Shown here: in pieces, positions 23,154 through 52,140 of the stretch
Numbering within the stretch: position 1 is the first letter of the stretch
Layout: every line of letters starts with the position of its first letter
From: Candidatus Altimarinota bacterium
GTDB taxonomy: Bacteria; Patescibacteriota; Gracilibacteria; UBA1369
DNA length: 64,000 nt
Assembly: GCA_963677745.1 (NCBI GenBank)
Contig: OY782391.1
Location: forward strand, 640,001 to 704,000
Direction: 5' to 3'
The notes under the pieces: model-generated
What the model was told of the DNA's origin: nothing
Database searches by the model: none
The model's input: only the letters and a program-made list of their open reading frames with translations
Translations under genes and position numbers: made by a program

Positions 23154-24308
23154 ATGCCAAAAATAAAAACCAAATTAGTCGCAACCTTTCTTCTTGCATT
23201 GATTGTCCTTCCGCAAGCGGTTTTTGCCAATTCCCTGATTGTCTCAACTGTAAAAAATCCCGACCCGTACAGTGGAAACTCCAGCTGGTTCCGTTATTAC
23301 GAATATCCGGGAACAACCGTCAAAGATTCCATTATCCTCCGCAACATCGGCAAACAGGCCGAATCAGTCAAGTTATACGCGGCCGACGCAACTTCCAACG
23401 ATGCCGGAAGTTTTTCTCCAAAGATGGAAAACGATGACCAAAAAGGCATAGGCGTATGGACGACTCTTTCTAAAAAAGAAGTAACACTTACCCCCGGTCA
23501 AAGCGAAGAAATCAGCTTTGAAATAAAAATCCCCCAGGAAATCACGCCGGGCCAATACTTTGGAAGTATTATTTATGAAGAAAGCGGAAGCAGCTCCTGT
23601 GGCCCCAATGAAAACGTTTCCGGCTTCTGCACGGGAAACATTCAAATCAAAACCAGAAGCGGCAATCGCGTTTATCTGACCATCCCCGGAGAAGCCAGAC
23701 ACGATATAAAAATGCTGGATTTCAAATGGAAAAAATCAAAAAAGAACAGCGTGTATTTTTCTTTCAGTTTCACCAATAACGGTAACGTCGCCTTCGAACC
23801 TAAAGCAATTATCAGCATTTACAACAGTTTGGGGAAAAAGATTGATACCATCGAGACAAAACTGGGAAAGTCGCTGCCCAACACTTCAATGAATCCTTCG
23901 GTCGAATGGAATTATAAGGAAAACTGGGGAGATTTCACCGCCAAAGCGGAAATATACTATCTGGAAGATAATCAGGGTCGGGTAGACAGCCTGCGTGGCA
24001 CGGTCCTGAGTGAGAAAAAACAAATAAATTTCTATGTGATCCCCTGGACCGGCGTAATCTATGCTCTGGTAATTATTTTAATAATCGGGGGAGCCATTAG
24101 TGCCCACTATCTCTTTTATCTTCGTATTAATAAAACAGCCATCAGATACACGGTAAAAAAAGATGAAAATCTGATTGATCTGGCCGAAACCTACAACACC
24201 AGATGGCAGATCATCGCCCATATCAACAAGCTGAGACCACCGTATGTAATCACTGAAAACCAGGTGATCAAAATCCCCCATAGCTCCGCCCAAAAAAATG
24301 AAAAATAA
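23154..24308 (+). CDS. DUF916-like (WxL-interacting) protein with second Ig-like domain, TM and C-terminal LysM
   Basis: Signal peptide (VFA); LYAADATSNDAGSF, IGVWTT..EVTLTPG, IP..ITPGQYFGSI, FTNNGNV; TM; LysM YTVKKDENLIDLAETY..IN..PY.I...IKIP. Confidence 0.8.
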   Translation: MPKIKTKLVATFLLALIVLPQAVFANSLIVSTVKNPDPYSGNSSWFRYYEYPGTTVKDSIILRNIGKQAESVKLYAADATSNDAGSFSPKMENDDQKGIGVWTTLSKKEVTLTPGQSEEISFEIKIPQEITPGQYFGSIIYEESGSSSCGPNENVSGFCTGNIQIKTRSGNRVYLTIPGEARHDIKMLDFKWKKSKKNSVYFSFSFTNNGNVAFEPKAIISIYNSLGKKIDTIETKLGKSLPNTSMNPSVEWNYKENWGDFTAKAEIYYLEDNQGRVDSLRGTVLSEKKQINFYVIPWTGVIYALVIILIIGGAISAHYLFYLRINKTAIRYTVKKDENLIDLAETYNTRWQIIAHINKLRPPYVITENQVIKIPHSSAQKNEK

Positions 24309-50730: not shown

Positions 50731-52140
50731 ATGTCCCCAAAAAAAGTCCTTTTCGGCATTTTGGGAGGCTGTCTGGCCGGACTTTTCACTTATCTTTTTC
50801 TGACCCGGCCGGAAAACAGTCTTTTTCTTCTGGAACTGGCGGCTTTCGGATATTTAACTTACAAAAAACCTTTCTGGGGGCTGATAATCCTGCTGCTGTT
50901 GCCGTTATCCGGAGAATTTTCCCGCATGACCTTTGTGGGACGGAGTCTGGTGATCAACGACCTGCTGGTGCCAATTTTTGATCTGGCGGCGCTTCTGAAC
51001 CTGTCCAAAAAGAAACTGGAACTGCCTCCCCTGCCTGCTCTTAAACCGCTGCTGTTCTTTCTATGCATCGGTTTAGCTTCCCTGCTTTTTAGTCTGCTAG
51101 CCCTGCCGCCGGCGGAAGTGCTGGCCGGTAGTTTGTATCTGTTCCGTCTAGCTTTTTACATTGCCCTTTTCCCCGTCACCTGCCTGCTGCTACCCCAAAC
51201 CGGATTAAACGGGTTTATCAAATGGATTGCTCTGTCGGCGCTGCTGATTACGCTTGGGGGATTTCTGCAATTAATTTGGTTACCCAGCCTGGAGGCTTTG
51301 TCCAAAAGCGCCGGATATGACCCGCATATTAACCGTCTGGTCGGAACCTGGCTGGATCCCAACTTTATTGGGGGATTCTTCGCAGTTATTTCCCTTCTTC
51401 TAATCAGCATGGGACTTTATCAGAAATCCACGAAGATCAAAGTTTATTATTTTGGTGTGACCGCGATACTCCTGGCAGCCCTGTTTCTGACTTACTCACG
51501 TTCGGCCTATCTGGCCTTCTTTGGGGGACTTCTGGTACTCGGCATTGCCAAAGCCAGAAAGCTTCTGATTTTGATTCTGATCATTTCCGCCATCGGCCTG
51601 GCCAGCTCGGAACGGGCTCAACAACGGGTAGGAGAACTGGTCACCAGTGTCACCTCGGTACTATTTAATACTTCCGAAAATCCCGACCCCACGGCCCGTC
51701 TACGTATTCAAAACTGGGAACAGACTCTGGAGTTGATCGGTCAAAAACCGCTGCTGGGACACGGTTACAACACCCTTACCTCGGTCAAACTATCCGAAGG
51801 TTTTATCTCCAGTGAGGAAACTCATTCCGCCAGCGGCTCAGACTCCAGCTTTCTGACCATCCTGGCCACCACCGGGTTACTCGGACTGATCACTTTTATC
51901 TGGTTTTTCATGGTTGTACTTCGCGACTCCCTTCACAGTTGGCGACATGCAAAAGAACCGGCTGTCCGCGGTCTGGGGCTGGGAATTTTTACGGGAGTAA
52001 TTGCCCTGCTCATTCACTGCAACTTTGTAAACAGCCTGTTTTTCCCGCAGATTATGATCTTCTTTTATCCCCTGCTGGGAGCGTTTTATAAAAATTTTAG
52101 TAGGCCAGCTCGGTCACCACGACCAATTTCCCATCCCTGA
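50731..52140 (+). CDS. O-antigen ligase (Wzy_C) family membrane protein
   Basis: Polytopic; RLVGTWLDPNFIG, TYSRSAYL, R..W......PLLGHG, TGLLG motifs. Confidence 0.88.
   Translation: MSPKKVLFGILGGCLAGLFTYLFLTRPENSLFLLELAAFGYLTYKKPFWGLIILLLLPLSGEFSRMTFVGRSLVINDLLVPIFDLAALLNLSKKKLELPPLPALKPLLFFLCIGLASLLFSLLALPPAEVLAGSLYLFRLAFYIALFPVTCLLLPQTGLNGFIKWIALSALLITLGGFLQLIWLPSLEALSKSAGYDPHINRLVGTWLDPNFIGGFFAVISLLLISMGLYQKSTKIKVYYFGVTAILLAALFLTYSRSAYLAFFGGLLVLGIAKARKLLILILIISAIGLASSERAQQRVGELVTSVTSVLFNTSENPDPTARLRIQNWEQTLELIGQKPLLGHGYNTLTSVKLSEGFISSEETHSASGSDSSFLTILATTGLLGLITFIWFFMVVLRDSLHSWRHAKEPAVRGLGLGIFTGVIALLIHCNFVNSLFFPQIMIFFYPLLGAFYKNFSRPARSPRPISHP

Follow-up and report, generated by a model that had tools for sequence, protein, structure and literature searches.

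How could a cell without an outer-membrane usher, and with no sortase near the genes concerned, assemble long proteins on its surface? The question is raised by a cluster of 12 open reading frames (ORFs), all on the + strand, at positions 23154-52140 of a 64,000-nucleotide stretch of DNA from a Candidatus Altimarinota bacterium (contig OY782391.1, positions 640,001 to 704,000), which we call the window. Bacteria belonging to the candidate phyla radiation (CPR) live attached to host cells, and to our knowledge the means of this attachment are largely unknown. A fibre system displaying an adhesin of 4593 amino acids (aa), as might be encoded here, is a direct candidate for such a role. The genome analysed is a single contig of 1.336 Mb that is 97.9% complete, and each gene is referred to by its first position in the window.

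An earlier note on the window had described co-oriented, partly overlapping genes for proteins of 212 to 4593 aa, with six DUF916-like proteins carrying a transmembrane (TM) segment and six proteins sharing a terminal strand. The coordinates agree with this layout: 23154 and 24298 overlap by 11 nt, 24298 and 27654 by 1 nt, 27654 and 28259 by 4 nt, and 48175 and 49286 by 17 nt, with chaperone genes preceding subunit genes. We consider it probable that the cluster encodes an usher-less, chaperone-assisted system for the display of surface fibres or adhesins, of the kind described in two preprints of 2026 as Elr/WxL pili (Sleutel et al., bioRxiv 10.64898/2026.10.17.759780) and Pam pili (Troman et al., bioRxiv 10.64898/2026.03.03.709456, PMC13278184). 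This proposal starts from results computed here, namely chaperone family membership, WxL-type homology of three subunits, synteny and spread in the phylum. The mechanism that the earlier note had suggested, in which membrane chaperones pair with pilin-like subunits, is plausible and matches these related systems, but it no longer stands for a candidate new system. Since the mechanism is already in print, the cluster is a variant rather than a new kind; particular to it are a Peribacteria-type bacterial host, LysM tails, a conserved chaperone-subunit fusion, the lack of an LPxTG anchor and a linked Wzy_C gene.

Chaperone-like proteins and terminal-strand subunits

The six DUF916-like proteins form one family. 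In the protein scan, PF06030 (WxLIP_PGBD, formerly DUF916; Pfam cut-off 27.3 bits) was matched above the cut-off by 23154 (39.4 bits), 48127/48175 (38.8 bits) and 50016 (39.4 bits), and below it by 46106 (25.6 bits) and 27654 (22.7 bits). A six-frame search of the genome gave five PF06030 matches, all within the cluster; 46106 reached 28.0 bits there, which places four of the six over the cut-off as against three in the protein scan. The sixth protein, 29303, had no PF06030 match in the Pfam protein scan and is placed in the family by its relation to 27654 (BLASTP E 5.9e-13) and 23154 (E 5.3e-12) and by the family hidden Markov model (HMM; E 4.7e-13). All six are mutually related by BLASTP, and a hydrophobic or TM segment follows the ectodomain in every one, so that the DUF916-like set of the earlier note is recovered in full, five members by PF06030 and 29303 by BLASTP and HMM.

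Three members are long and end in a LysM tail. The 384-aa protein 23154 (23154..24308, + strand; family HMM E 1.5e-109) consists of a signal peptide, the DUF916/WxLIP_PGBD domain, a second beta domain, a TM segment at residues 293-311 and LysM (35.2 bits). The same order is seen in 46106 (46106..47308, +; 400 aa; DUF916-like domain, second domain, TM 305-323, LysM), an architecture common to 41 relatives, and in 48175 (48175..49302, +; LysM 35.7 bits), which is 375 aa long when read from an ATG internal to a longer GTG frame starting at 48127. By Pfam, LysM thus follows the TM segment in three of the six proteins, at approximately 24147-24281, 47127-47260 and 49144-49272; some relatives carry LytR_C at the same position instead. 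Because the flank after the TM segment is the more positive one in 25 of 29 members of the chaperone family, a cytoplasmic location is predicted for the LysM tail. Two further members are short, 27654 (27654..28262, +; 202 aa, C-terminal TM 174-190; HMM E 6.4e-22) and 50016 (50016..50708, +; 230 aa, TM 188-206), and each could be either a chaperone or a membrane anchor.

Searched against the PDB, the chaperone profile (29 sequences) found, after LysM proteins, EfmWxLIP1 as chains 9i25_C (E 7.8e-6) and 9i1y_A (E 1e-5), and with a profile of the ectodomain only (9 sequences) the EfmWxLIP1 chains were the best matches overall (E 0.0049). A second beta-rich region is present in the chaperones despite the absence of a match to PF11797 (WxLIP_HBD/DUF3324). 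An NCBIfam scan returned sub-threshold LysM-type and unrelated matches only.

The partners of these proteins are recognised by their ends. Six cluster proteins stop 0-4 residues past a conserved strand whose terminal motif is T-F-T-L, T-F-T-I or similar in all six. Among the genome's 4783 stop-to-stop ORFs, 11 have the motif G.Y...[LIVM].[FWIY].[LIVFT] near the C terminus: the six cluster proteins, four proteins of a second locus and one likely chance match, which leaves 10 credible ORFs. With a position-specific scoring matrix (PSSM) trained on 62 relatives of 47372, the scores were 38.5 bits for 47372, 30.0 for 24298, 15.4 for 28259, 11.1 for 49286, 8.6 for 29303 and 6.6 for 32312, as against a maximum of 3.4 bits among 3136 other ORFs; 3 of the 3136 reach the threshold. 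The motif count and this separation (6.6-38.5 bits as against 3.4) confirm the shared terminal strand. The dual Trp-x-Leu motif of WxL proteins is absent from all six subunits; the first motif region retains D-x-R-G, without the G-W of the CPR WxL family.

Homology beyond the strand is uneven. For comparison we used A5, an alignment of 14 small CPR subunits of which 8 are PF13731-positive at E <= 0.1, and trimmed signal peptides before running hhalign. The large subunit or adhesin 24298 (24298..27654, +; 1118 aa), without a Pfam match, ends in a WxL-like domain, and its last 230 aa aligned to A5 at 91.4% (E 8.9e-7, 141 columns). The C terminus of 29303 did so at 94.2% (E 1.1e-7) and also matched a Pfam-positive WxL protein of locus L018 (BLASTP E 1.5e-6). 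This 767-aa fusion (29303..31606, +) runs from a signal peptide and DUF916-like ectodomain through a TM segment (267-285), a short basic loop and a second hydrophobic segment (297-320) into about 450 aa that end WxL-like; two of the three related loci described below, L003 and L004, have orthologs with the same fusion, 747 and 794 aa long. The family of 47372 aligned to A5 at 83.3% (E 8.6e-6), sharing with it a [VI]-x-D-x-R-G motif as well as the terminal strand. WxL-like homology is good in 24298 and 29303 and fair in 47372; in 49286 and 28259 it is weak, and in 32312 absent. A common C-terminal fold, which the reading of the earlier note would require, has profile support in 24298, 29303 and 47372; 32312 shares the terminal strand only, and the remaining two are weak.

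The weaker members are otherwise of the expected form. The secreted protein 28259 (28259..29284, +; 341 aa), which could be two-domain, has the terminal strand and, at its N terminus, another conserved strand; there is an ortholog in L003 (50% identity) and an atlas lead to PF13731 (score 0.76), taken as a lead only. The secreted 49286 (49286..50011, +; 241 aa) has the terminal strand together with an N-terminal strand of the G-x-x-I-x-C type and orthologs in L002-L004; a homolog search with it returned only 49286 itself, and its atlas leads to PF13731 and PF05229 at 0.90 are again leads only. The giant adhesin 32312 (32312..46093, +; 4593 aa) carries an N-terminal TM segment or signal anchor, 20 TIG and 5 GEVED domains by Pfam, and the terminal strand at its very end.

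The protein 47372 (47372..48010, +; 212 aa) is, from profile searches and a structure model, a small pilin-like protein with a single WxL-like domain and a candidate for the major subunit. A profile of 8 relatives gathered 64 representatives of its family. Of these, 21 are larger proteins (560 to 2550 aa) that carry the entire mature domain at their C terminus, and three of the 21 come from the second locus of this genome. That locus, at genome positions 1249324-1269929, encodes four large secreted proteins (1521, 1434, 2201 and 673 aa) with TIG and RCC1 repeats, each ending in a full 47372-type domain (HMM E 1e-28 to 1e-31). Their genes are surrounded by those of ribosomal proteins, and no PF06030 gene is close by.

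With 40 sequences, AlphaFold modelled 47372 at a pLDDT (predicted local distance difference test) of 85.1, as against an unusable 42.6 with 8 sequences. The model is a single beta-sandwich (residues 43-210), and the best 15 Foldseek rows were all chaperone-usher pilus entries with CfaB first; the modelled fold comparison is suggestive only. Neither 9i25 nor a Pam chain was in the Foldseek or VIA lists, and their presence in those libraries was not established. Among 177,635 PDB sequences, the best match of the family profile (40 sequences) was the WxL chain 9i25_A (E 0.0088), aligned over the last 67 profile positions and running to the chain end on the terminal strand; the single sequence of 47372 found nothing below E 1.5. 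By sequence matches that are each weak alone, both partners thus lead to one solved complex, 9i25, each to a different one of its two chains.

Besides the terminal strand, the best-conserved mature positions of the 47372 family are G30 (38 of 40 sequences), Q32 (33), I34 (34) and C36 (all 40); 2 of the 40 relatives end in T-W-T. The gene is preceded directly by a near-consensus promoter match, TTGACA-17-TATTAT (47311..47339, +; 11/12, a consensus match only), and followed directly by a terminator-like hairpin with a 13-bp stem and a T run (48040..48069, +). We regard 47372 as the likely shaft subunit because it is bracketed by these two matches, because G30, Q32, I34 and C36 are as conserved as the terminal strand, and because the large adhesins carry this very domain. 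As a separate observation, its signal peptide (window 47372-47446) is near-invariant in the family, with K2, K3, L4, A15, N16 and G18 in >=90% of 40 sequences, far above the mean column identity of 21% in the mature protein; this conservation may reflect a special export or processing step.

Related loci in other CPR genomes

A check across the phylum, proposed in the earlier note, found PF06030 in 149 of 401 sampled genomes at E <= 0.001 (one unpublished genome, G154, included) and over the cut-off in 93 of the 401. Nearer to the window's genome, a match was found in 1 of the 7 sampled members of its order and in 3 of the 17 of its class. PF13731 was found in 25 of the 401, in 10 of them over the cut-off, and for 7 of the 11 matches over the cut-off, a PF06030 match that also passes its own cut-off lies no more than 4 kb away on the same contig.

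The pairing of chaperone and terminal strand recurs in these genomes. We took 20 loci around strong PF06030 matches in other CPR genomes, and in 18 of them at least one ORF passed the PSSM threshold (27 of 370 ORFs in all). When 22 of their ORFs were scanned with Pfam (20 of the 27 positives, the 7 longest being left out, plus 2 picked by eye), PF13731 was matched in 9 at E <= 0.1, in 7 at E <= 0.001 and in 3 over its 25-bit cut-off.

A search for related loci with a single protein found no relative, and a narrower chaperone alignment led to three: two in metagenome-assembled genomes of Candidatus Peribacteria and one in Candidatus Peregrinibacteria UBA1369. All three have the order chaperone-LysM, small pilin, chaperone-LysM, 49286-like subunit, short chaperone, Wzy_C, a protein of 390-475 aa without assigned family and an extracytoplasmic function (ECF) sigma factor. 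One of the three also carries orthologs of 23154, 24298, 27654, 28259 and 29303, and two have a giant gene. We found no paper joining WxL proteins with Patescibacteria or the candidate phyla radiation in our literature searches.

Other features recur around PF06030 genes in more distant CPR lineages. Glycosyltransferase C (GT-C)-type enzymes flank them, with Wzy_C plus TPR in L014 (1929-4151) and PMT_2 in L019 (11683-13284), and a protein of about 500 aa without a Pfam family is found repeatedly (L014:8474-10066, L016:3965-5524, L019:10193-11686, L028:11285-12823). A second type of subunit, 341-486 aa long and ending G-x-Y-S-x-x-V-x-Y-x-A-x-P-x-F/Y, adjoins PF06030 genes in L022, L025, L026 and L027 (genomes G265, G116, G199 and G259), two of the four genomes being of the same class or order as that of the window. 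It shows no profile similarity to the window's subunits (at most 6.8%), and a likeness of the set to Pam would be a guess.

Proposed assembly and competing explanations

The earlier note had seen no usher, and PF00577 indeed gave 0 matches at E <= 0.1 in the genome. It had also called the system free of sortase and LPxTG proteins; this holds for the cluster, in whose proteins no sorting signal was found, but not for the genome, which has one sortase about 445 kb from the cluster and two sorting-signal proteins, LPKTG and LAKTG, far from it.

We infer strand complementation, polymerisation, subunit order, anchoring and glycosylation along the following lines. Subunits would be exported by Sec, and membrane-tethered chaperones of the DUF916/WxLIP type (23154, 46106, 48175, perhaps also 27654 and 50016) would cap their incomplete immunoglobulin (Ig)-like domain of the WxL type, a chaperone strand pairing with the C-terminal strand G-x-Y-x-G-T-x-T-F-T-L of the subunit. 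With a promoter match and a terminator match of its own, 47372 would form the shaft, the conserved strand G-[ST]-Q-x-I-x-C at the N terminus of each copy being donated to the subunit next to it. Large proteins with the same C-terminal domain, namely 24298, perhaps 32312, and the four adhesins of the distant locus, would be displayed at the tip. The base would be held in the membrane, possibly by the fusion 29303 and not by a sortase, or alternatively by the short DUF916-TM proteins. The Wzy_C protein 50731 may glycosylate subunits.

Several results weigh against this proposal. The fibre and its polymerisation are predicted here from sequence. No pilus terminator or anchor protein was identified, nor was a two-FnIII anchor like the PamR of Pam pili recognised. 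About 10 residues precede the invariant Cys36 of 47372, which is short for a donor strand. Of the profiles named in the earlier note, PF06030 was matched in the genome; PF11797 was found neither in the cluster proteins at E <= 0.1 nor in the genome at E <= 1, and PF13731 neither in the cluster proteins by Pfam nor in the genome at E <= 1. One of 40 relatives of 47372 touches PF13731 (E 0.0095), the match of the family to the PDB chain 9i25_A is weak at E 0.0088, and the A5 profile itself found no WxL chain in the PDB. An hhalign value of 96.8% for the 47372 family against A5 was discarded as inflated by signal peptides, the trimmed value being the 83.3% given above. Among the other subunits, 28259 reached 41.7% (E 2.7e-4) against A5; 49286 without its signal peptide reached 60.3% (E 8.5e-5) against A5 and 55.9% (E 1.1e-4) against the 47372 family; and 32312 lacks WxL-like support, with 0.3% (E 0.22) and at most 7.9% (E 0.0044), respectively.

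The same proteins might instead form a coat of adhesins without any fibre, each DUF916 protein permanently holding one WxL-like protein by strand insertion as in the earlier csc/WxLIP model. We think this rather doubtful, but it has points in its favour: WxLIP was proposed to bind and stabilise WxL on the surface (Hassan et al. 2023, PMC10599100, in the part of the article available to us), six chaperone-like genes face ten terminal-strand proteins, which within the cluster is near one holder per client, the N-terminal extension of 47372 is short, and no terminator was found. Against a static coat stand the polymer of WxL subunits seen by electron cryo-microscopy (cryo-EM) in the Elr system and the Pam fibres of a CPR bacterium, as reported in the accessible parts of the two preprints (10.64898/2026.10.17.759780, PMC13278184). 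The promoter and terminator matches that bracket 47372, as for a bulk subunit, an N-terminal strand conserved as strongly as the C-terminal one, and four distant adhesins without a holder gene of their own also argue for a fibre. A role in tying secreted Ig-like proteins to wall polymers, with the LysM/LytR_C tails and Wzy_C as the core of a cell-wall or S-layer glycoprotein attachment system and DUF916 as the wall binder, would account for LysM on three of the six chaperone-like proteins and LytR_C on relatives, for the conserved Wzy_C gene at the operon end and the GT-C-type enzymes near chaperones in L014 (Wzy_C) and L019 (PMT_2), and for the Pfam name 'peptidoglycan binding domain' of PF06030. 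We judge it improbable: LysM follows the only C-terminal TM segment and is predicted to be cytoplasmic (25/29), which puts the wall out of its reach, and neither the terminal strand common to the subunits nor the homology of the chaperones would have a role.

It could finally be asked whether the terminal strand is no more than a tyrosine-corner strand of the generic kind, shared by Ig-like proteins that are unrelated, the cluster then being a loose collection of surface proteins without common assembly. A similar P-G-x-Y-x-G motif does occur inside the chaperone-like proteins, the structural matches are unspecific, and three of the six subunits are without good profile support. This explanation is disfavoured by the counts of the terminal strand, and we give it very little credence: the strand lies at the extreme C terminus in 10 ORFs of the genome, with 3 of 3136 others reaching the PSSM threshold, the same pairing is present in 18 of 20 PF06030 loci of other CPR lineages (27 of 370 ORFs), and the whole gene order is conserved in relatives.

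The proposed chaperone-assisted fibre could be part of a larger picture, which we put forward tentatively. PF06030 chaperones and WxL-like subunits might constitute one ancient pilus superfamily of single-membrane bacteria, joining Pam of the CPR with Elr/WxL of the Bacillota and occurring in roughly one in three CPR genomes. The lineage studied here would then be self-anchoring, with 29303 as a membrane-embedded terminator complemented in cis that replaces sortase/LPxTG or PamR, and a single chaperone set would also load adhesins encoded 560 kb away.

Neighbouring genes and comparison with known systems

Ahead of the first gene lies a sigma-70-like promoter match, TTGACC-17-TATAAT (23087..23115, +; 11/12), a consensus match only, in a region with 16 such matches as against 14.1 expected from shuffles. 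At the other end, the cluster closes with 50731 (50731..52140, +), a polytopic membrane protein of the Wzy_C (O-antigen-ligase-like) family (PF04932, 77.1 bits); the gene follows the last chaperone gene in all three related loci, and its product is a possible glycosylation enzyme for the subunits. Directly after the cluster, on the - strand, are a 417-aa protein without a known family (52097-53350) and its partner, an ECF sigma factor (53355-53900), as judged by Pfam and NCBIfam scans. The pair holds the same position in L002, L003 and L004, all three related loci; as neighbours the two genes are conserved, it is uncertain that they belong to the system, and they may regulate the cluster.

Within the cluster, a reverse-strand ORF of 173 aa (31599-32120) with no Pfam match occupies most of the 705-nt gap ahead of the giant gene; it is perhaps a spurious frame. 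Positions 32260-32287, ahead of 32312, hold a promoter-like match. Upstream, the - strand carries three large ORFs, 1688-5710, 17285-20422 and 20476-22983 (1340, 1045 and 835 aa). Two are without a Pfam match; the third has bacterial TSP3 repeats and weakly matches the Ca-binding domain of binary-toxin B components. By PSSM, the terminal strand is absent from all three. Downstream, the product of 58146-59126 (-; 326 aa) combines SLH repeats with a cupredoxin domain by Pfam and has the look of a copper protein anchored to the wall or S-layer.

Among known systems, the Elr pilus of E. faecalis is a close parallel. As described in the accessible text of the preprint (10.64898/2026.10.17.759780), the elr WxL operon encodes the tip ElrA, the LPxTG terminator ElrB, the WxL pilins ElrC and ElrD and the DUF916-DUF3324 membrane chaperone ElrE; the shaft is built from ElrD by donor-strand exchange primed by TM-anchored ElrE, the cryo-EM structure is of a donor-strand-exchanged WxL polymer, and the fibre is anchored by the LPxTG terminator and sortase. 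The cluster resembles it in having a PF06030 chaperone with a C-terminal TM segment, no usher and neighbouring genes (here adjacent or overlapping, within 10 kb), and in combining a single-domain small subunit with large proteins that have the same domain at the C terminus, an arrangement also described for WxL clusters in the part of Hassan et al. 2023 available to us (PMC10599100). In Elr the subunit ends on the strand that pairs with the chaperone, and the same is predicted here from sequence; the solved E. faecium WxL-WxLIP1 complex 9i25 is matched by both partners, one chain each. Unlike in Elr, the genome has no PF11797 or PF13731 matches and the WxL tryptophans are replaced (T-F-T-L); the cluster has no LPxTG terminator, six chaperone-like genes of which three are LysM-tailed, and one chaperone-subunit fusion.

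The two hosts also differ, the cluster being of a CPR bacterium and thus outside the range stated in the accessible text of the Elr preprint, 'confined to the Bacillota' (10.64898/2026.10.17.759780). The finding of PF06030 in 149 of 401 phylum genomes bears on that statement. According to the same text, detection required PF06030 and PF11797 together, plus PF13731, in RefSeq reference proteomes; because this genome lacks PF11797 and PF13731, the rule would miss the cluster.

The Pam pili of Candidatus Mycosynbacter amalyticus show that fibres of this sort are made by a CPR bacterium, as far as the accessible text reports (PMC13278184). They comprise the pilins PamA, PamB and PamE, the tip PamT, the TM-anchored chaperones PamC and PamD and the anchor PamR, and the solved structures are of donor-strand-exchanged two-domain pilins with no usher and a TM-anchored terminator, PamR. 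Like Pam, the cluster belongs to a CPR bacterium, lacks an usher, and has chaperones with a C-terminal TM segment and signal peptides on every part, seen here as hydrophobic signal-like segments at the N terminus; going by the accessible part of the preprint, a truncated Ig-like pilin domain, a donated strand and acceptor site as the most conserved parts, and paired cysteines would likewise be shared. PamA is reported there to be post-translationally modified, which the Wzy_C gene here may parallel. The Pam pilin differs in its two domains with an internal linker strand, where 47372 has one domain and a strand at its N terminus, and the reported distribution of Pam is in Saccharimonadia and Microgenomatia, where the named relatives of the cluster are Peribacteria/Peregrinibacteria. 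No Pam chain was among the matches of our PDB searches, and the likeness to Pam is drawn from its description only. The Elr text does not mention Pam, CPR or Patescibacteria (10.64898/2026.10.17.759780), and the Pam text does not mention DUF916, WxL or LysM (PMC13278184); since neither preprint mentions the other system, a link between the two is open to test.

With classical chaperone-usher pili (CFA/I, with CfaB and CfaA; Caf1 with Caf1M; Csu) the cluster would have in common an incomplete Ig-like pilin domain that ends on a donor-paired strand, and it differs from them in having no outer-membrane usher. It differs from sortase-assembled Gram-positive pili in that the subunits have no sorting signal and the locus no sortase. 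The LysM tails, the chaperone-subunit fusion and the absent sortase anchor suggest that there are other ways to end and anchor such a fibre.

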